A DNA stretch of 52,744 bases, taken from contig CAYXJU010000002.1 of assembly GCA_964464765.1 (NCBI GenBank), positions 1-52,744 of the forward strand, given 5' to 3'. Position 1 is the stretch's first letter, and each line of letters begins with the position of its first letter. The notes under the pieces are model-generated. The model was not told where the DNA came from. It did not search any database and was given only the letters and a program-made list of their open reading frames with translations. This document shows positions 17,676 to 41,128 of this stretch, piece by piece. This stretch comes from an uncultured Candidatus Bathyarchaeia archaeon (GTDB lineage Archaea; Thermoproteota; Bathyarchaeia; 40CM-2-53-6; CAVXDP01). The position numbers and the translations under genes were made by a program.

Positions 17676-18104
17676 ACCTCTCAATCATCAATGGATACCA
17701 ACCGTTGACAATCTGGATCTAAAGACTAAGGAATTTGCAACATTTATGTCGAGAGTCTTAGGGAAGTTTACGAGAGCATATGTTGAACAAATGCCTAGAT
17801 GTGTCGATGACAGATGGCTTCTGTCGGTACTGGTTCATCTGATTCTGGACTCAATCTCGATAGATCAATTGCAGGAACAGGGCATCAGAGATTTTCCATT
17901 TGCATAGAGGATAAGGTAGCCTTGAACCTCCTTTTCGGCCCAAATCGTCTTATGAGAGGCCTCAGAGTCCCAGAGAAGTGAGATTAGACCATCGTATTGC
18001 TCGGGCCTACTATTGGGGATACATCCCTGACCTAAGAATCCGCATGAACAAAGATACTGCAAAAACGAGAAAGATCCAAAGGTTGTTTAACCCCGATGAT
18101 AAGG

Positions 18105-18195
18105 TGGGGTCGGTGGGATTTGAACCCACGACCTCCTGGGCTCACGCCTTTAGGGTCCCGAGCCAGGTATCCTAACCAATCTAGACTACGACCCC
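18105..18195 (-). tRNA. tRNA-Pro (anticodon CGG) with a ~16-nt intron at or next to the anticodon loop
   Basis: The reverse complement reads GGGGTCG-TA-GTCTAGATTGGTTAGGAT-A-CCTGG-CTCGGGA-[CCCTAAAGGCGTGAGC]-CCAGG-AGGTC-GTGGGTTCAAATCCCAC-CGACCCC-A. All four arms pair. Confidence 0.85.
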
Positions 18196-31437: not shown

Positions 31438-34400
31438 TCAGGCGAAGTCGCCCAGCAGCATCTGATCCTTCTTGTTCGTTCTTTCGAAGAGAGATGCAAT
31501 TTCGTCTCTGATGAGCTTAAGCCTCTGTTCATGATATTCTCCAATGTTGTAGCGACTAACAAGATGCTCTGCAATTTCAAGATATTTTTCAATCGATCCC
31601 TTATGAACTGTAAGTGATATCTTACCTCCGCACTTTTGGCATTTTCCCGATAGAGGCGCCCGTCGGTATCTGGTGTTGCATCTGGTGCATCGTAGCTTCT
31701 GTGTTGAAAACGCTTTCAAGTTTCCTGTCAGATCTCTCATGAAGTGTGTTGAGAGGAGCCTTCTAGCTACCTCTCTGGCGTCGACCGCCTTCACTAACTC
31801 AGCAAGATCCAGTTGTTCCTGAACCTTCTCGGACATAGACTCTAGTTTCTTGTAGGAGCTTTCTTTATTGCAGCTGTTCAGATTCTCAACTTCATGAGTG
31901 AAGGCTAGAGGTTGAAGTTCACCTTCCGTTCCCACTCTGTGGGAAAGCGTCTCAATAAGATCACTGATCCTTTTGGGATCCGCGTGGCACTCAGCCTCCT
32001 CAAAGAAGGCTGATGGAAAGACCTCCACAACTTCTACGTTAAATGCTTGACGAGCTACTTCCACCGGCTTGATTCCTAACGTCAGAAGAAGCGGTGCGTC
32101 CATCATGCCGCCGATTCTTCCAGGAAGAAAAGCTTTGGAAAAGTTAAGTAGAACATCTAGTGCGAGCGAGATGCTGTCTTCATCTCCGTCACAATCTCTC
32201 CTCTTGGCAGCGTGCCACAAGGGATGGGCCAAGCAAACACTGAGGTCTGTGAACCCTACGATTCGCCCTAGAACTCCTACAGACGTGTGAGGACTCAACC
32301 CAACTACGAGCTGCCCTACAAGATCCTTTCTCGAATGCGCATTGTAGCATGCGGGCAAACCGTAGAACTTTGTAAGAAGCTCATCAACAAATTTGGCCAC
32401 GTTAACCAAGTAGTCGCCACAAGTCTTCGGAACGATTACGTCCTGAAGTTGAAGAGAACATAGTTGGTTGCCGTTCGTTAAGGGGTCACCCTTGTGATCG
32501 AGGGTGTATCCAAGTTCATGCAGTCCATCGACAGATACATCTACTTCACTTGGCCTGAAATGTGATAGAATGGCGTTTGTCGCATCGAATCTGATGGTTC
32601 CGTCCTTAAAGACTGAGAGGTTGAATCTTGCCCGAATGAGTCCCTTCTCAATAGGTTCTGGCATTCTGGAGTCGCTTACCAGTCCTTTAACGCCTTTCAC
32701 AACTTCTCCAATCGGCTGTACGCCCAATCTCCTTTGGGCATCATCAAGAAGTATCCTAAGATTCACAGGTCTCTTGTCGTATGGAATGGTCTTGACTTTG
32801 CAGGTGGGACAAGTGCCTGTGGACTCTCTCCTACCGCATATTGGACACGCTGATTCCAGTTCGGTTCGCATATTGCATTTTCGGCAGAAGTTTGAATGCG
32901 TCAACTCGGAACATTTGGGACAGCGTTTTCTCACAACTTCAACTGAAATGACCGCCCTTGTTCTGGCAGCTTCTATGAGATCGCGCTTGGCGCCGCCTGC
33001 CATTCCGATCGGAAATAGCCCATGTACAACTGGCTTCATCTCCCTCCTCTTGGCCTTCTCGGGACGCCCCATCCTTGCTCCAATGAACGCCCCTGCTTTC
33101 CTTCGAACCTTAATCCCTGAGAGTTTCTCAATGGCATCAAATACGTCACTTGCTGCATGTGGTTTCTGCGTTTCCTGAAGCCCCAGACAACAAGAGAGTA
33201 TTGTGGCATCTTCATGTAGAATCAGTTTTTCGTTCACAACCTCATGAGGAAGACAGAGTTTCTCGAGAAGTAGTTGGAGATCGTTATCGGCGTTTACTTT
33301 CATCTCAGTCGTAAATGTTCCGTTGAACTTAATGTCGGCGGAATGCAACTTTCTTCTCAGTCGGTCGAATTCTTCAAGCGACAGTTGTTCCCAGAAGTAT
33401 GTATACCTGGGGTGCAGGGGAATGCCCAAGTTACGTGAGATTGCCAGCGCCTCGACTGCAGTCGGTTTCACGACCAAAGGGTTCTCAAGAAAGGATCTGA
33501 TGCGATCTTCCGGTACTCCCGTCATGTTGGATGTCGTGGCAGCGCTTGCCGAGTGTGACTCTATTGCAATTCTTAGATGCTCCCTCCACCACTCCTCAAC
33601 AAATCCAGATCGCGCCAGTGGTTTGTTGTTCTCCAAGAATTCTCCATAACCAACCAAAATATCGCCAAGGAAGAGAATAGATTTGATTTGTCTTTCGAGT
33701 TTTCGAGCCAAGTCGACATCTTCGACGCGAATTATTGATCCATCCACGAGTTTGACAACAGGGGGTTCTATTGTGTCGACTAGTGATACAACGCCAGCTT
33801 TGCCGGGTGTCTCTATGCGAAGTTGGGTTCCTGCGGCGATGAAGTTCCTCAGAATCTGCATTGTGGCCGAGTGAATCCCAAGCGCGGCAAGTCCGGTATC
33901 TCTGCACCTACCATATCTTAGTCTGAATCCACCCTGCCTTCCTGGGAATGAGAATATAGGTCGTCCGCCGATCACGTCTTCCATGAACATGAATTCTGGA
34001 GCTTCCTTAGATTCGACCTTTGGAGCTTTTATTTGGCGAAGCCAGTTCCAGCCGTCTATTCCAATCTTATCTGTGATCTTCAGAACCTTGTTAGCCCTAC
34101 CGACAAGACCGTCATTCACAACCCGAAGCGCTCCTCCCCTCACCCTGTTGGTTTCCACCCTGGCCAGATTTCTGAAAGACTTGACCTCGATGGGGTCAGT
34201 TTCTACCCCGGTCACCTCGATGGGAAGATGCATGATGGCGTTGAAGAGTTCACTATCGGGAAGTCGGTATTGAAACCTTGCAACTTCCCTTTCGTACAGC
34301 CTAAGCTCGGCCACGAACCTCTTAGCTTCCATTTCGGTAGCTTTGTAGCGATCGAAGCCCAGCAGAGTCCGAGCGAAATCGGCAACGACCACGGCCATAC

Positions 34401-34857
34401 CCATCTCTGTTCCTCCTGCTGACCGAATCGGACCTGCAAAATAGACCGCCAAGTATCTTGATCGATCAGAGTTAGTTTTCTCTCGCACGTTGGTTATTCC
34501 CTCGATTGGAGCGACCGTGACGCCCTCGTCCAAGATTGCGAGTGCGGATCTGATTGCTTGATCTGCTGCCACGATCCCTTCCTGATGATATTCACCGTAA
34601 ACAATTTCTTCAGCGATTTTGAACGCGACCTCTTCTCGCGGCATAACCTTGGACAATTCACGTATTCTAGCAGCCACGTCATCTGGCCCAACAGACTTCT
34701 CCACGCGTTCAGCAAGATCTACCGTCACGACAGATTCTGGTCGAAGTGACGGATCAAATCCCTGCAGACGAGCTTTCTGAGCCAAATTCATTTGCTCATT
34801 AAATCCTCGCTCCAACGATGAGAAGTAATCTTTTCCGTCATATGATTGGAGTCCCAT
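31438..34857 (-). CDS. polC: DNA polymerase II (PolD) large subunit DP2
   Basis: 1139 aa. Characteristic DP2 blocks are present (YFAGPIRSAGGTEMG; VNDGLVGRA; FPGRQGGFRLRYGR; multiple CxxC Zn modules; CDGDEDS catalytic region). Length is consistent with no intein. Confidence 0.95.
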   Translation of the reverse strand: MGLQSYDGKDYFSSLERGFNEQMNLAQKARLQGFDPSLRPESVVTVDLAERVEKSVGPDDVAARIRELSKVMPREEVAFKIAEEIVYGEYHQEGIVAADQAIRSALAILDEGVTVAPIEGITNVREKTNSDRSRYLAVYFAGPIRSAGGTEMGMAVVVADFARTLLGFDRYKATEMEAKRFVAELRLYEREVARFQYRLPDSELFNAIMHLPIEVTGVETDPIEVKSFRNLARVETNRVRGGALRVVNDGLVGRANKVLKITDKIGIDGWNWLRQIKAPKVESKEAPEFMFMEDVIGGRPIFSFPGRQGGFRLRYGRCRDTGLAALGIHSATMQILRNFIAAGTQLRIETPGKAGVVSLVDTIEPPVVKLVDGSIIRVEDVDLARKLERQIKSILFLGDILVGYGEFLENNKPLARSGFVEEWWREHLRIAIESHSASAATTSNMTGVPEDRIRSFLENPLVVKPTAVEALAISRNLGIPLHPRYTYFWEQLSLEEFDRLRRKLHSADIKFNGTFTTEMKVNADNDLQLLLEKLCLPHEVVNEKLILHEDATILSCCLGLQETQKPHAASDVFDAIEKLSGIKVRRKAGAFIGARMGRPEKAKRREMKPVVHGLFPIGMAGGAKRDLIEAARTRAVISVEVVRKRCPKCSELTHSNFCRKCNMRTELESACPICGRRESTGTCPTCKVKTIPYDKRPVNLRILLDDAQRRLGVQPIGEVVKGVKGLVSDSRMPEPIEKGLIRARFNLSVFKDGTIRFDATNAILSHFRPSEVDVSVDGLHELGYTLDHKGDPLTNGNQLCSLQLQDVIVPKTCGDYLVNVAKFVDELLTKFYGLPACYNAHSRKDLVGQLVVGLSPHTSVGVLGRIVGFTDLSVCLAHPLWHAAKRRDCDGDEDSISLALDVLLNFSKAFLPGRIGGMMDAPLLLTLGIKPVEVARQAFNVEVVEVFPSAFFEEAECHADPKRISDLIETLSHRVGTEGELQPLAFTHEVENLNSCNKESSYKKLESMSEKVQEQLDLAELVKAVDAREVARRLLSTHFMRDLTGNLKAFSTQKLRCTRCNTRYRRAPLSGKCQKCGGKISLTVHKGSIEKYLEIAEHLVSRYNIGEYHEQRLKLIRDEIASLFERTNKKDQMLLGDFA

Positions 34858-34964: not shown

Positions 34965-35258
34965 CTACGTGATTTTCGCAGTCTCATTTTGTTGTGCGAC
35001 AGGGCGAGTCTTTGAATAGAATCTGTCCGTGAAACTACAGTAGATATCCACCATATCAGAGGATGGGGGCGCGTCAAGCTCGTCCTTCAACCCGCAAGAC
35101 GCGCATTGAAGTGTGGCCTTACCAGTTCCTTTGGAAATTGTGACCTTCATAGCGTCTTGGCTGCAACTCGGGCATGTGAAAAGTGTTGGAAGCTTCTTCT
35201 TCACAACTTTGATGACACGTCTGCGGCGTCTTCCCACGCATAGACCTCCGAAGGCCAT
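34965..35258 (-). CDS. Elf1-like transcription elongation factor (zinc ribbon)
   Basis: 97 aa. A basic N-terminus GRRRRRVIKVVKKKLPTLFTCPSC...LQCASCG...DMVDIYCSFTD matches the Elf1 pattern (F.CpfC...C..C....DvY..wiD). Confidence 0.65.
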   Translation of the reverse strand: MAFGGLCVGRRRRRVIKVVKKKLPTLFTCPSCSQDAMKVTISKGTGKATLQCASCGLKDELDAPPSSDMVDIYCSFTDRFYSKTRPVAQQNETAKIT

Positions 35259-35411
35259 CCTGTTGACATTGGGTGAAGAGTCAAAGTGCCAGTCCTTTAA
35301 ACATAGTGATGCTGGTGCGACTCTCTCCTATGCCCATGGAGTACCCAAAGACATGACCGAAGGCATTTATGTTGGAACCGAATACAAAACTGTATCCGGA
35401 GAGCCGACGGT

Positions 35412-35900
35412 TTGGAACACGATCGCGATGCCCAAATCTTGTTCAAACAACAGATGAAACGGACGCTAAGTGATCCGATTGTAAGGATTCTCATTGATAA
35501 GAGTAATTTAACCCCGATACAGTTTCAAACATTCCTAACAGATCGCATAATGAAACAAAACAGCGCAAATATGAAGGAAAACAAGAAGAATATGTGCATG
35601 AGAATGGACCTGGCGCAAATAACCCGTGGGTCGTTCAATAGGACCTTAAATCAGGCCACTAGGAATATAATTCGGTCCATCTACACCATATTCCTTTTGG
35701 GGTATGTGGGGATTTTCGATGATCCCACATTGGAACCCTTCATCGAAGCATCAAACCAAATACGCTCCTACCTAGATCGCCTAAGATCGTCAGAACACCG
35801 ACTGGACGCAGACGGAGCGCGCGCATTAGCGACCTTGTTGGAAGACTTGAAGAAGACCGTTGAGAATTTAGCTGGGGTCAAGAATTTCAAGAGTCTGTGA
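35412..35900 (+). CDS. Hypothetical protein, possible Tfx/sigma-70-region-4-like HTH
   Basis: 162-aa ORF (the start could be an internal Met). LTPIQFQTFL...MDLAQITRGSFNRTLNQATRNIIRSI loosely resembles an r4/Tfx-type HTH. Weak call. Confidence 0.3.
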   Translation: MEHDRDAQILFKQQMKRTLSDPIVRILIDKSNLTPIQFQTFLTDRIMKQNSANMKENKKNMCMRMDLAQITRGSFNRTLNQATRNIIRSIYTIFLLGYVGIFDDPTLEPFIEASNQIRSYLDRLRSSEHRLDADGARALATLLEDLKKTVENLAGVKNFKSL

Positions 35901-36087: not shown

Positions 36088-36765
36088 ATGACTCCATCAC
36101 AGGATATCTTACTTGTGATCGCGTCCGCGGCGGTGGCATTCACGCTTGTGATTACGGGTGCGGGAATTGTAGCTCGAACGACCAAGGAGTATAGAGACGC
36201 TCGAACAGTAGTGAAGGCCGTTATCACAACCTATGGTAAGAAACTTGTGCGCCAAGAGGAAACTTGTCAATCCATTTCAACCGAGTTGGCGCATCTCAGG
36301 GGTTCTATTGAGAAACTTGAGACACATGAAAGTGAAGTGAGCCAAGTGAGTCAGGCGACTTCTGCTTCAGTGGAGTTAACCCAAGCACTCAAGGAAACTT
36401 CGGACAACCTTAGACTTCTCAATGAGAGACTCAGCATCCAAGACGGGGATCCTATTAATCAAGTGCAAATTGACCGATCGAAAGAGACACGCCTGAACCT
36501 CGTCACAAGAGGAAATCAAGAAGTGACAGCCACAGAAGTGTTTACGCTGAAGATTTTGGCGACAGAAGGAGCGAAGGCGTCAACGGAACTCCATAAGAGA
36601 GTCGGTAGGTCTCGAGAACATTTTGCGAGATTGATGAAAAGACTCTACGAACGAGGTTATGTGGATCGAGACACTTCCAAGATTCCATTCACTTACAGAA
36701 TCAACGAGAATATCGCGAGGAAGGTCTTAGAAACCGCAAACGAAACTATGAAGCACTCCGCCTAG
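36088..36765 (+). CDS. Membrane-anchored coiled-coil protein with C-terminal MarR-like wHTH
   Basis: 225 aa. N-terminal TM helix ILLVIASAAVAFTLVITGAGIV. A heptad-like middle region follows. The C-terminus is FTLKILATEGAKASTELHKRVGRSREHFARLMKRLYERGYVDR. Confidence 0.55.
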   Translation: MTPSQDILLVIASAAVAFTLVITGAGIVARTTKEYRDARTVVKAVITTYGKKLVRQEETCQSISTELAHLRGSIEKLETHESEVSQVSQATSASVELTQALKETSDNLRLLNERLSIQDGDPINQVQIDRSKETRLNLVTRGNQEVTATEVFTLKILATEGAKASTELHKRVGRSREHFARLMKRLYERGYVDRDTSKIPFTYRINENIARKVLETANETMKHSA

Positions 36766-36771
36766 TCTTTG

Positions 36772-36798
36772 CACCCACCCCTGCATTTCCATTGAAAC
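36772..36798 (-). promoter_or_regulatory. Origin recognition box (ORB-like), left copy
   Basis: The reverse complement reads GTTTCAATGGAAATGCAGGGGTGGGTG, i.e. a TTCxAxTGGAAA dyad plus a G-string. Confidence 0.65.
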
Positions 36799-36945
36799 AA
36801 ATATCTCTCTCGACGAACTCCCCCATTCGAACGTGTAGTTTTCACTCTAGTTTAGTATAGCGAACATCTTACATTCCAACATCATAAACTTACCACAGAC
36901 TTTTCATCTAGAAACAACAACACATCCCAAATCCTCATACTTTAC

Positions 36946-36971
36946 TTCCAGTGGAAATGGTGGGGTGGGGG
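36946..36971 (+). promoter_or_regulatory. Origin recognition box (ORB-like), right copy
   Basis: TTCCAGTGGAAATGGTGGGGTGGGGG matches the archaeal ORB/mini-ORB core TTCCAGTGGAAA followed by a G-string. Confidence 0.7.
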
Positions 36972-37057
36972 CGCACCCTCTGTCGATATTCTAATACACC
37001 TTTAGTTTTTTGCTGTGTTTAATCTCTTTTCGTGTACAACAACCCTTATAGCAGCAG

Positions 37058-37074
37058 AACGCCGACTCGGCGTT
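37058..37074. promoter_or_regulatory. 17-bp palindrome AACGCCGA-C-TCGGCGTT in the orc1/cdc6 leader
   Basis: Perfect 8-bp arms. It lies between a TTATA box (37046-37050) and the GGAGG Shine-Dalgarno (37083-37087) preceding the GTG start at 37094. Confidence 0.45.
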
Positions 37075-37093
37075 TCTAACACGGAGGGTCGTA

Positions 37094-38341
37094 GTGTCAA
37101 CCATAGAGACATTGAGTGGAGTATTCGATAATTTTCTAAACGGAAAAAAGATCTTTCTCAACAGAGACGTGCTTAGAAACGACTACGTACCCGACGTACT
37201 TCCACATAGACATAATCACATTACTAAATTGGGAGGCATACTAGCACCTGCGCTTGGAGCCTCAAAAGTCTCAAACCTCTTTGTCTACGGGAAAACGGGA
37301 ACGGGAAAAACAGCCGTCACAAGACTTGTGCTCAGCAGGTTACAGGGAAAGGCAAGCGAGATCGGAGCGCCTGTTCACACCTGTTACATGAATTGTCGTC
37401 TCACTGGAACAAACTACCGGGTTCTTGCGGACCTGTGCAGATCGCTGGGAATAACCGTTCCCTTCACAGGTCTTGCGGTCGCGGAAGTCTTGAATCGTTT
37501 ACGAGAGGTGCTGAACCGTAAACGTCAGATGCTGATCGTTGCCCTCGACGAGATCGATGCCCTCGTCAAAGGTCGAGAAGAAGACAATCTACTGTACGAA
37601 CTCACGAGGATAAACGAGGGGTTGAAGGGCAGCTGGGTCGGACTGGTCGGCATATCAAACGACCTACACTTCAAGGAATTTCTTGATCCCCGCATTCTAA
37701 GCTGTCTAAGCGAGGAGGAGGTAGTCTTCAAACCCTATATGGCCGATGAGCTATACGACATTCTACTTAATAGGGCTAGGTCAGCTTTTGTGCAAGATGC
37801 TCTCAGCGACTCATCGCTTCGTCTTTGCGCAGCGTTGGCTGCAAGAGAGCATGGAGATGCGAGGAGAGCACTTGATCTTCTGAGAGTTGCGGGAGAACTC
37901 GCTGAGAGGGTAGGGGCCCTCACGGTTGCGGAAGATCATGTAAAGTCAGCTGAACGGAAGATAGAATACGACCGTGTCTCCGAGACTCTGAACTCTCTGC
38001 CTCTCCATCCGAAGATAGTTACGATAGGAACACATCTTCTCGAAAACCATTTTCCGGAGGGCGCCATAACAGGAGACCTTTACGGTCTGTACAGAGAGTT
38101 GTGCAGCAAGGCCGATATCGAACCTCTTACGCAGAGAAGAGTGAGCGGCCTCGTAAACGAATTGGACATAATGGGCGTTGTGAACGCGCGTGTTGTAAAC
38201 TTTGGCCGGTACGGAAGGACTAAGAAAATCCGACTAGCAGTAGAAGGAAGAACTATTGTCGAAACCTTCTCCCAGGATGGGTCAGTCAGCCACCTCTTAT
38301 CGCACACCCCAATCTCGATCCGTAGCAAGATCCCACGGTAG
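37094..38341 (+). CDS. cdc6: Orc1/Cdc6 replication initiator
   Basis: 415 aa. The N-terminus has FLNRDVLRNDYVPDVLPHRHNHI. Walker A is GKTGTGKT and Walker B is VALDEID. Sensor and wH C-terminal domains are present. GTG start with an SD. Confidence 0.95.
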   Translation: MSTIETLSGVFDNFLNGKKIFLNRDVLRNDYVPDVLPHRHNHITKLGGILAPALGASKVSNLFVYGKTGTGKTAVTRLVLSRLQGKASEIGAPVHTCYMNCRLTGTNYRVLADLCRSLGITVPFTGLAVAEVLNRLREVLNRKRQMLIVALDEIDALVKGREEDNLLYELTRINEGLKGSWVGLVGISNDLHFKEFLDPRILSCLSEEEVVFKPYMADELYDILLNRARSAFVQDALSDSSLRLCAALAAREHGDARRALDLLRVAGELAERVGALTVAEDHVKSAERKIEYDRVSETLNSLPLHPKIVTIGTHLLENHFPEGAITGDLYGLYRELCSKADIEPLTQRRVSGLVNELDIMGVVNARVVNFGRYGRTKKIRLAVEGRTIVETFSQDGSVSHLLSHTPISIRSKIPR

Positions 38342-38888
38342 ATATGTCGGTGTCGACGACGGAAGCTTCAACTTTCAACGACCAAGTAACTATAACAGAG
38401 ACAAGGTACTCCTTGCAGTAGTTCTGTTTCAAGGAACAAGAATAATTGCACTTCGGCTGGGAAAGATAACTATAGATGGCCTTGACGCTACAGCAACGTT
38501 GATTCGGCTTCTAAAGGGATTCAGTTTTGACGCCATCTTTCTCAGTGGGGTTTCCTTTGCTGGTTTCAACCTCATAGAGCCTTTCAGAGTATGCATGGCA
38601 TACAGGAAACCAGTGATCATAATTTCAGGAAGGCGACCCAACAACCGCTCCGTTAGAAGAGCCCTCAGGCTTCACTTTGAGGACTGGAAAGCTCGGTGGG
38701 CGACCATAAGAAAGCTTGGACCAATCTATAGTGTAAGAAGCTGCGCTGCAGAGCCCCCCCTCTTTTTTGAGGTTGTTGGAACATCCGCCGACAGGGCCAG
38801 AAGATTGATCAAAGAGTCAGCCAAGTTGAGCAGACTTCCCGAACCCATCAGGGTCGTGGGCCTAGTTGCGAAGGGTCTCAGCGCATGA
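38256..38888 (+). CDS. DUF99 (UPF0215) family protein
   Basis: YVGVDDGSF...LAVVLFQG...KITIDGLDATATLIRLL......IFLSGVSFAGFNLIEP......KPVIIISGRRP matches the DUF99 pattern. The only in-frame starts (ATG at 38256 or 38277) overlap the cdc6 3' end by 65-86 nt, so the start is uncertain. Confidence 0.6.
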   Translation: MSKPSPRMGQSATSYRTPQSRSVARSHGRYVGVDDGSFNFQRPSNYNRDKVLLAVVLFQGTRIIALRLGKITIDGLDATATLIRLLKGFSFDAIFLSGVSFAGFNLIEPFRVCMAYRKPVIIISGRRPNNRSVRRALRLHFEDWKARWATIRKLGPIYSVRSCAAEPPLFFEVVGTSADRARRLIKESAKLSRLPEPIRVVGLVAKGLSA

Positions 38889-38992: not shown

Positions 38993-39421
38993 ATGCCTTA
39001 TTGCCATCAATGTAGAAAGGACTTCAAGGTGGTCCCTGCATGCCCGCAATGTGGTCTCCCACTTGTTTCTAGGGCAACAGCTGGCTTGGTCGTCTCAGTT
39101 ATCGCTGGAGCAATAGTGTTGATTACTGCGCTTCTTGTGTTACTCTTCTACCCAACATTTCTCAGCATCCTGGCCGCGCTCGGGCTAGGACTCCTCCTTT
39201 CCATAGCGCTCGTATACGGTCTCGTAATAGTGATGGTCGGCTTTGTATCGGGCATTCTGATGATGGTTGGTGGAGCTCTCATATATCTCCCGGGAAAAGA
39301 GAGGGCAGGGGCGGCACTTGTACTACTGTTCTCAATAGTGAGTCTAGTAGTGTTAGGCGGACTTATTGTTGGAATAACTCTGGGAATTGTCGGTGCGGGT
39401 CTAGGGTTCGCAAAGAAGTAG
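38993..39421 (+). CDS. Zinc-ribbon membrane protein (hypothetical)
   Basis: 142 aa. The N-terminus is CHQCRK...CPQCG, followed by 4 TM helices. Confidence 0.45.
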   Translation: MPYCHQCRKDFKVVPACPQCGLPLVSRATAGLVVSVIAGAIVLITALLVLLFYPTFLSILAALGLGLLLSIALVYGLVIVMVGFVSGILMMVGGALIYLPGKERAGAALVLLFSIVSLVVLGGLIVGITLGIVGAGLGFAKK

Positions 39422-40933
39422 CTAAGCCTCAGATAGGAAATTGATAGTAGCCACTTGAAGTGTCTGAAGATCCACAATAGGAAGAATGCCTGGAGTCGGC
39501 TCAAGTCCGAGCTTTCTCTGGTAATCGGTCTGGGCCTGCCACGCTCCTGAGTTAACAATGAGTGTTCCCCGATAACTTCTTCGCCCCAAGACATGTACAT
39601 GCCCGGAATGGAAGATGTCTGGGGGCTTCTGCACGACTAGGTGATCTTCTTCTTCGGGGGCAATCGACGCCGCCATTCCATAAGCAGGAACCAGATGCCT
39701 GCATTTCAGCAGGTATTCCATGGCTTTGTCTGGGGAGTGGAGTTCCATATCTGGGATTGAAGCCATCACATCGTTCAGGCTTGTTCCATGATAGAGTAGG
39801 AAATCGACTCCATGCAATCTAACCTCAGAGGGATTGCCCAGCGAGACGATCTTTCTGCTGTCATAGAGCGGTTTCGCATATTCTGAGGGGATCGCTGGTT
39901 GTGGCAGCGACTGTCTTGTTGCATCATGGTTACCAGGGATTAGTATCACCTCTATGTGCTCGGGGATCTGCTGTATGAATTGGGCGACCAATTGGTATTG
40001 TTGATAGATGTTGGGAATGGCTAGTTCTTCTTCTTGTCGGGGGTAGATTCCCACTCCATCCACAATATCGCCTGCAATAATCGCATATTTCGTTCTTCCA
40101 GCGAGTTCTATCTGTTGTCCCGAGCCCACCTTTCCGTTCATCCAGAGTATCATTTTTCTGAAGGCCGATTCGAGGAAGGTTTTGCTTCCAAAATGTATGT
40201 CTGAGATCAAAGCAACGTTGACAGGTTCCGAAGCTTTCGTAGGTTTTCTGTCTGGGATGTCTGGAAGGTAGATGCCCTTAGCGACTAATAGTTCGTTCCT
40301 TGCCCTGACGGCTTCGATGCAGAGAACTTGGTCAAGCGAAAGTCTCTGAGCGATCTCATACAAGCTCCTATCAACTTCGCCCAGAACCAGAACTGTAGCC
40401 GTGTTTTCAAGGTCGTCAACGTCTAGGAAAATCTTTCCGCCTCTTTCTCGCTTACCCATGATCATCGCAATGAACTTCACCTTCTCGTTTGACGGTGCAT
40501 CGAGTGCATAAGCTATGGACCGGGCGCCTCTCACATCGGATCTCTCGTGTAATATCATCGACATTTTTTCAAATCGGTCTCTGAAATATTTCACAAAAGA
40601 GTCGAGACTTCCTCGAGACGTGATGTTTTTGGTGGCGTCCGCCACAACTTCGATCTGTGATACAATATCGCGGGCAGGAACTTTTGGAGTTCCCACGCTT
40701 GGGGTAACCACGGGCTCCATTGTTTTCAAGATTTGCGTCGCAAAGAAGTCTTCCGTTATTACAAGTGGTCTTGGCGAGGTTTGGTTTGCTTTTTGTATCG
40801 CCCCACGAATCGACCTGCCGAGCTCTTCTTCATTCATCCTGCTAACAAGTTCGAAAGCATCCTTGCTAAGTTGGAATCCTTCAGAAGCAAGGGCCTCTAT
40901 TGCGTGACGCAGATTTTGCGAAAGATCAGGCAT
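39422..40933 (-). CDS. polB: DNA polymerase II (PolD) small subunit DP1 (Mre11-like phosphoesterase exonuclease)
   Basis: 503 aa. An OB-like middle region is followed by phosphoesterase motifs: VALISDIHFGSKTF, IIAGDIVDGVGIYP, IPGNHD, LYHGTS, SGHVH. Confidence 0.9.
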   Translation of the reverse strand: MPDLSQNLRHAIEALASEGFQLSKDAFELVSRMNEEELGRSIRGAIQKANQTSPRPLVITEDFFATQILKTMEPVVTPSVGTPKVPARDIVSQIEVVADATKNITSRGSLDSFVKYFRDRFEKMSMILHERSDVRGARSIAYALDAPSNEKVKFIAMIMGKRERGGKIFLDVDDLENTATVLVLGEVDRSLYEIAQRLSLDQVLCIEAVRARNELLVAKGIYLPDIPDRKPTKASEPVNVALISDIHFGSKTFLESAFRKMILWMNGKVGSGQQIELAGRTKYAIIAGDIVDGVGIYPRQEEELAIPNIYQQYQLVAQFIQQIPEHIEVILIPGNHDATRQSLPQPAIPSEYAKPLYDSRKIVSLGNPSEVRLHGVDFLLYHGTSLNDVMASIPDMELHSPDKAMEYLLKCRHLVPAYGMAASIAPEEEDHLVVQKPPDIFHSGHVHVLGRRSYRGTLIVNSGAWQAQTDYQRKLGLEPTPGILPIVDLQTLQVATINFLSEA

Positions 40934-41019: not shown

Positions 41020-41128
41020 TGGCGCGGCGGGCCGGATTCGAACCGGCGTAGACCGTGAGGCCTACCGGCTCTATAGTCGCTTTCGCGGATCTCGAGGCCG
41101 GCGCATTAGACCGCTCTGCCACCGCCGC
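41020..41128 (-). tRNA. tRNA-Ser (anticodon CGA) with a ~20-nt anticodon-loop intron, long variable arm and encoded CCA
   Basis: The reverse complement reads GCGGCGG-TG-GCAGAGCGGTCTAATGC-G-CCGGC-CTCGAG[ATCCGCGAAAGCGACTATAG]A-GCCGG-TAGGCCTCACGGTCTAC-GCCGGTTCGAATCCGGC-CCGCCGC-G-CCA. Confidence 0.9.

Follow-up and report, generated by a model that had tools for sequence, protein, structure and literature searches.

A predicted oriC1-type replication origin in reduced two-box form beside an Orc1-1-type initiator gene of an uncultured Bathyarchaeia archaeon

The Ori1 of A. pernix has four origin recognition boxes (ORBs) placed around an AT-rich region. The oriC1 of Sulfolobus is composed of three boxes, ORB1, ORB2, and ORB3, of which ORB2 and ORB3 are inverted around an unwinding element (PMC12141716; PMC3607249). 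Its ORB3-DUE-ORB2 core is essential, and ORB2 and ORB3 are each individually needed for firing in vivo (PMC12141716). The Sulfolobales also have the ucm motif (ATTATACAAAC), placed midway in the unwinding element, and the ucm-binding protein (UBP), which was reported by its authors as restricted to Sulfolobales and Desulfurococcales; the same authors asked explicitly whether other lineages possess such a factor. The oriC of Pyrococcus possesses an ORB1/ORB2 inverted repeat, arrays of mini-ORBs, and an oriC-cdc6-dp1-dp2 cluster, and the core of P. furiosus ORB1 is bound by Cdc6/Orc1 in vitro in gel shifts (PMC1904270).

Bathyarchaeia are abundant and almost entirely uncultured sediment archaea, and no description of a Bathyarchaeia replication origin was found in the literature searched. 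A known origin would provide a reference point to orient and close metagenome-assembled genomes, permit growth-rate estimates from peak-to-trough read depth, and serve as a starting point for shuttle vectors. The DNA analysed here is a stretch of 52,744 nucleotides from an uncultured member of this class (hereafter, the window), and it occurs in freshwater, sediment, and wetland metagenomes and in none of the RNA runs searched. An oriC had been predicted in it upstream of orc1/cdc6, which is supported by ORBs, an AT-rich inverted layout, an Orc1-1 gene, conservation in 34 species, and PolD/orc1 synteny. Sequence comparison suggests, with a probability of roughly 0.85, that the site is an oriC1-type chromosomal replication origin of this freshwater-sediment/wetland archaeon, present in a reduced two-box form.

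The left origin recognition box is located at 36772-36797 on the minus strand, where it reads TTTCAATGGAAATGCAGGGGTGGGTG, and is the equivalent of Sulfolobus ORB2. Its dyad occupies 36784-36797 and its G-string 36772-36783, the latter directed away from the spacer. The right box (36946-36971, plus strand), equivalent to Sulfolobus ORB3, reads TTCCAGTGGAAATGGTGGGGTGGGGG and consists of a dyad at 36946-36958 and a G-string at 36960-36971 that is directed towards orc1. The original prediction had placed two 26-nt boxes at exactly these positions and strands, identical at 21 of 26 residues and inverted with their G-strings outward. Both positions are borne out by the sequence, direct comparison returns the same 21/26, and the dyads face the spacer. 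The pair also constitutes the top inverted repeat of the region in a repeat finder, having 27-nt arms that are 81% complementary with 148 nt between them. The proposed resemblance to the archaeal ORB, a dyad followed by a G-string, holds as well: both boxes show the TTCC...GGAA dyad with a G-string, and the right box begins with 14 nt that are identical to the core of P. furiosus ORB1.

The loose 14-nt core pattern alone has three matches in the window against 2.05 expected, which is not significant, and a 26-nt weight matrix was therefore built from relatives, trained on 99 sites of relatives only, with the window excluded. The matrix scores the left box at 26.9 bits and the right box at 34.1 bits, and these two are the only matches of at least 10 bits in the 52,744 bases; when the window was simulated 200 times with a first-order Markov model, the best score had a mean of 7.8 (sd 2.9) and a maximum of 17.7. 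When two mismatches are allowed in the 14-nt core, the two boxes are recovered together with one chance-level site at 35123. Beyond the window, a metagenome collection was scanned exactly for TTCCAGTGGAAATNNNGGGGT, an ORB pattern with 18 specified bases, giving at least 120 stretches, 80 of which were examined. An orc1 gene is within the fetched piece at 22 of these 80 loci, though most pieces are short, and a second box lies within 600 nt at 35 of them; 12 of the 80 are solitary, flanked by 2 kb or more of sequence on each side and lacking an orc1. Isolated boxes thus occur away from orc1, a single box is therefore weak evidence, and the argument depends on the pair together with its context. 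It is box pairs or clusters, not isolated boxes, that go with origins; in Pyrococcus, single mini-ORBs that lie scattered remain unbound in vivo (PMC1904270).

The two boxes enclose a spacer (36798-36945) that is a candidate duplex unwinding element and helicase-loading zone. It had been described as about 147 bp long and AT-richer than its flanks; the length is in fact 148 nt, while the enrichment is real but moderate, with a G+C content of 37.8% against 46.5% for the window, which places the spacer in the lowest 1.6% of all 148-nt segments. By predicted duplex stability, 36830-36920 is its weakest part, which falls within the least stable 1.4-5% of 40-nt segments. A second patch of similar AT-richness, by both G+C content and duplex stability, is found at 36980-37040, between the right box and the orc1 start.

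The gene to the right of the site (37094-38341, plus strand) encodes an orc1/cdc6 initiator of 415 aa, assigned to the Orc1-1 type by its domain, subfamily, and PDB matches. It begins just right of the site, as had been predicted, with a gap of 122 nt after the right box. The start codon is GTG at 37094, preceded by GGAGGG, and homologues align from residue 1. The gap constitutes a putative orc1 promoter/leader (36972-37093, plus strand), in which TTATA at 37046-37050, an 8+1+8 palindrome at 37058-37074, and the GGAGGG at 37083-37088 can be read. The product contains the Pfam domains Cdc6_lid, Cdc6_C, and AAA_22 and matches the NCBIfam model TIGR02928 with 397 bits, the cut-off being 181. Among solved structures, it matches S. 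solfataricus Orc1-1 (2qby_A) with an E value of 7.8e-110 and A. pernix ORC1 on ORB4 (2v1u_A) with 6.5e-109, and Orc1-3 (4.3e-51) and ORC2 (5.6e-19) are both far behind. The two closest solved relatives are initiators that were crystallised on origin boxes.

In the S. solfataricus Orc1-1, mutations that weaken box binding affect G120 and L121 of the initiator-specific motif, R341 of the recognition helix, and R365 of the wing (PMC3089459). In the PDB alignment, these four residues correspond to G126, L127, R348, and R372 of the window Orc1. For this mapping, chain numbering was taken to be shifted by 11 residues from native numbering, which agrees with the identities of the residues. Three motifs are intact, namely, Walker A (GKTGTGKT), Walker B (LDEID), and GDARRALDLLR. 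Judged by these alignments, the initiator beside the boxes is of the Orc1-1 type, with its DNA-contact residues kept.

Both PolD subunit genes are in the neighbourhood: the large subunit DP2 is encoded at 31438-34857 on the minus strand and the small subunit DP1 at 39422-40933, also on the minus strand. Between DP2 and the left box are three genes on the plus strand, namely, one at 35212-35457, orf162 (35412-35900), which encodes a conserved 162-aa protein without a family or solved relative, and a gene at 36088-36765 for a 225-aa protein whose single membrane helix is N-terminal and whose long charged middle part is followed by a winged helix (wHTH) at the C-terminus. The stop codon of the last is 6 nt before the left box. 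Genes to the left of the site had been said to run mostly leftward, which is refuted by these three nearest genes and by the 30 ORFs of at least 90 aa on that side, 19 on the plus and 11 on the minus strand. The companion claim that genes to the right initially run rightward stands, with orc1, Endo_dU (38256-38888, plus strand), and a Zn-ribbon protein gene (38993-39421, plus strand) followed by DP1 on the minus strand. There is no divergence of gene orientation at the site. Within the 52.7-kb window, the extremes of the cumulative G-C curve are located away from the site, at 13.4 and 25.0 kb, and a local minimum at 35.8 kb follows gene strand.

The order DP2, orf162, wHTH, oriC, orc1, Endo_dU, DP1 is kept across the class. 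Among related loci, orf162 is found in 32, the 225-aa wHTH gene in 28 at the same position, Endo_dU in 36, and DP1 in 36, and DP2 is kept wherever the fetched flanks extend to it. A replication-gene neighbourhood of a similar kind surrounds the Pyrococcus origin (PMC1904270). When orf162, the 225-aa wHTH protein, and a small wHTH protein of the relatives were compared with solved structures, nothing below E = 0.06 was found, so these origin-adjacent proteins could not be linked to UBP or to a known origin factor. As side observations on this stretch, the Endo_dU (DUF99) ORF, taken from its first listed start, overlaps the orc1 3' end by 86 nt (38256-38341), and its true start is uncertain. Two tRNA genes on the minus strand, one of 106 nt at 41023-41128 that is found by Rfam and not reported by ARAGORN, and a tRNA-Pro of 93 nt at 18103-18195, exceed the length of a plain tRNA, probably because of introns.

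Relatives of the window Orc1 with 57-82% identity were obtained from 44 species-level genomes, almost all labelled Bathyarchaeia. When these relatives were scanned with the matrix, almost all loci with enough upstream sequence had boxes in constant positions ahead of orc1, and a minus/plus box pair 127-190 nt apart is present in 34 of the 44 related species loci. With the window and a second strain (L045) added, these 34 species make up a set of 36 loci, and the G+C content of the spacer is below that of the locus in all 36 (means of 36% and 47.6%, respectively). A third, outer plus-strand box occurs in 29 relatives, giving the order plus, minus, plus. Three loci (L019, L023, and L043) have no box directly upstream of orc1. 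In another locus, L041, whose Orc1 is 66% identical, the gap upstream of orc1 (2698-2985) is 288 nt long and very AT-rich, and it has no recognisable box at 8 bits or more; the origin of this species may be elsewhere or may have diverged. Three further contigs (L009, L018, and L033) carry a typical Bathyarchaeia orc1 locus with its origin in bins labelled as bacterial (Acidoferrum, Methylomirabilota, and Acidiferrales) and are probably mis-binned.

The window belongs to a small group in which only the two core boxes are present, together with three species (L001, L002, and L040). In the Orc1 tree, the two-box loci fall into a single four-species clade (support 100/100), which has three-box lineages on both sides. 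The relatives have a small winged-helix gene (129-142 aa) between the 225-aa gene and the outer box, of which no homologue was found in the window, at E of 0.01 or lower, or in the three sister loci. The relatives also carry TTCACA boxes, five times denser in the origin region (2.43 per kb) than elsewhere (0.50 per kb); there are none in the window's origin. The comparison sets positions 36766-36771 of the window against about 2020-2560 of four related loci (L003, L014, L020, and L037). Since the two-box clade is flanked by three-box lineages, a single loss is the most economical reading: about 0.6 kb would have been removed once, and the small gene would have gone with it, as would the TTCACA boxes and ORB1, the outer box. 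The reduced form, on this reading, is the ORB2-spacer-ORB3 core retained with the outer box lost.

Three elements were found inside the spacer, all given on the plus strand. E1 (TGTAGTTTTCACTCTAGT; 36834-36851) was detected by a Gibbs search and by alignment, and the same search gave E2 (CACAGACTTTTCATCT; 36894-36909), which takes the form ACCAAyGRCTTCTTC in relatives. The Gibbs search had no positional prior, and it placed E1 109-116 nt and E2 47-56 nt before the right box, each in 30 of 35 loci. Between them, the alignment of the 35 loci reveals a mid-spacer yTTTAy-like element that resembles a TATA box (CTTACATT; 36868-36875), whose T.TA columns are conserved and which is near the midpoint between the boxes. 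Relative to the orc1-proximal box, E1, the mid element, and E2 are at about -112, -78, and -52, respectively, so that E2 is about 25 nt downstream of the mid element. Variation in spacer length is confined to the stretch between the left box and E1.

The window and the second strain are 99.7% identical over 7.15 kb. Of the 21 differences, eight are concentrated in the hypervariable edges of the spacer, at 36803-36812 and 36924-36933, and none is in its core (36813-36923). E1, the mid element, E2, and the left box are invariant, and the right box has one strain variant, at its variable first position, with the core unchanged. The strain variants recur in independent metagenome runs, and the contigs break inside the spacer in three of three runs.

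E1, the mid element, and E2 are candidates for accessory-factor sites, for a promoter with its start site, or for constraints of helicase loading. They might form a second layer of cis elements besides the Orc1 boxes in the Bathyarchaeia origin, as sites for an origin factor analogous to the Sulfolobales ucm/UBP, a tentative proposal that is possible but on balance doubtful. If it were true, the natural deletion in the window's clade, with its loss of the ORB1/TTCACA/small wHTH module, would indicate that this outer module can be dispensed with and that the spacer elements are what matters. On a plainer alternative, the origin may just harbour a promoter and a start site of transcription, to which the yTTTAy element and E2 would correspond. 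The ucm motif itself has no match in the window's spacer at up to three mismatches; among relatives, matches of 9/11 occur inside E1 in L015, L020, and L021 only, and, being AT-rich, they may be due to chance. E2 was also considered as a mini-ORB, as the CCAATGG core of its relatives resembles the dyad core; the E2 of the window matches at only 6 of 13 positions and so was not called one.

Some other explanations of the boxes have to be weighed against an origin. They could be Orc1 sites that serve only for autoregulation of the initiator's own gene, as an operator, with replication starting elsewhere. The right box is 122 nt upstream of the orc1 start, beside an AT-rich promoter region, and it has been proposed that archaea couple transcription of the initiator to the origin (PMC4010727). 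An operator, however, would require no inverted pair at a distance of 148 nt and no AT-rich spacer, the latter being conserved in 36 of 36 loci. The L019-type clade is informative here, as a divergent gene for an 878-aa pyruvate,phosphate dikinase separates orc1 from an intact three-box cluster, which is located 2.9 kb away beside the usual small genes (L166, 8645-8965) and keeps its boxes and a 149-nt spacer. Retention of this cluster thus does not depend on the orc1 promoter, and the cluster is more than an orc1 operator. The two roles are compatible and not mutually exclusive, and a purely regulatory function is quite improbable.

A structurally intact origin might also be dormant or dispensable, with copying mainly from another origin or by recombination-dependent initiation. 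There are precedents in T. kodakarensis, which replicates without cdc6 and its presumed origin (PMC5663688), and in Haloferax mediterranei, which has dormant origins (PMC4595724). Boxes, spacing, and internal elements are under strong purifying conservation throughout the class, which argues for use, as does the finding that strains differ at the spacer edges but not in the spacer core or the box cores, and dormancy is accordingly unlikely. Lastly, the site could belong to a dispersed repeat of non-coding DNA, or a mobile element could have integrated there with the site as its replicator, for Orc1/ORB pairs are known on plasmids and viruses too. The locus is, however, within a class-wide conserved neighbourhood with both PolD subunits, and there is no second copy in the 52.7 kb. 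Nor do other contigs pile up on 36700-37000 at 80% likeness in three metagenome runs, where contigs are available at 3-8x word depth and depth drops rather than rises. Over 50 kb, an active origin would be expected to produce a depth gradient of about 1%. A dispersed repeat was rejected for the locus on these two grounds, the missing second copy and the missing pile-up, and this whole class of explanation is extremely unlikely.

For the preferred reading, a chromosomal replication origin, a mechanism can be proposed from the homology with Sulfolobus oriC1. One Orc1-1 monomer would occupy each box with fixed polarity, its winged helix on the TTCCAGTGGAAA dyad and its AAA+ initiator-specific motif on the G-string side. 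Because the boxes are inverted, two ATP-bound initiators would face each other across the 148-nt AT-rich spacer. They would recruit a pair of MCM helicase rings, N-terminal tiers facing, onto the spacer in its double-stranded state; melting would begin in the spacer, and two forks would depart in opposite directions. Binding, helicase loading, and firing at the site are thus expected by analogy with the described origins. The kind of element is textbook, and a specialist or an origin-finding program would expect it; only the reduced two-box form and the position-fixed spacer elements go beyond that expectation, and they are mildly new.

Compared with the Thermococcales, the right box shares the identical 14-nt core (TTCCAGTGGAAATG) with P. 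furiosus ORB1, and the origin likewise adjoins cdc6/orc1 with both PolD subunit genes near. The G-string comes about 7 nt after the dyad in P. furiosus ORB1 and 2 nt after it in the window, and the PolD genes are in an operon with cdc6 in Thermococcales, whereas in the window they are split to either side, on the strand opposite orc1. The window is also without 13-nt mini-ORB arrays and has no matrix match or second box cluster inside dp1. The A. pernix Ori1 is similar in its closely related initiator (6.5e-109) and in its oppositely oriented boxes around an AT-rich region, and differs in having four boxes, compared with two in the window. The oriC1 of Sulfolobus/Saccharolobus shares ORBs made of a dyad and a G-string, an inverted pair around an AT-rich spacer, and a position directly upstream of an Orc1-1-type gene, Orc1-1 being the closest solved relative of the window protein. 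It differs in having three boxes, compared with two in the window, and a box-spacer-box unit of about 130 bp, compared with 200 nt; the plus, minus, plus order of its three boxes is found in the window's relatives. The Orc1-1/ORB2-DUE-ORB3 core of Sulfolobus would thus be kept in a distant, PolD-using branch of Thermoproteota.
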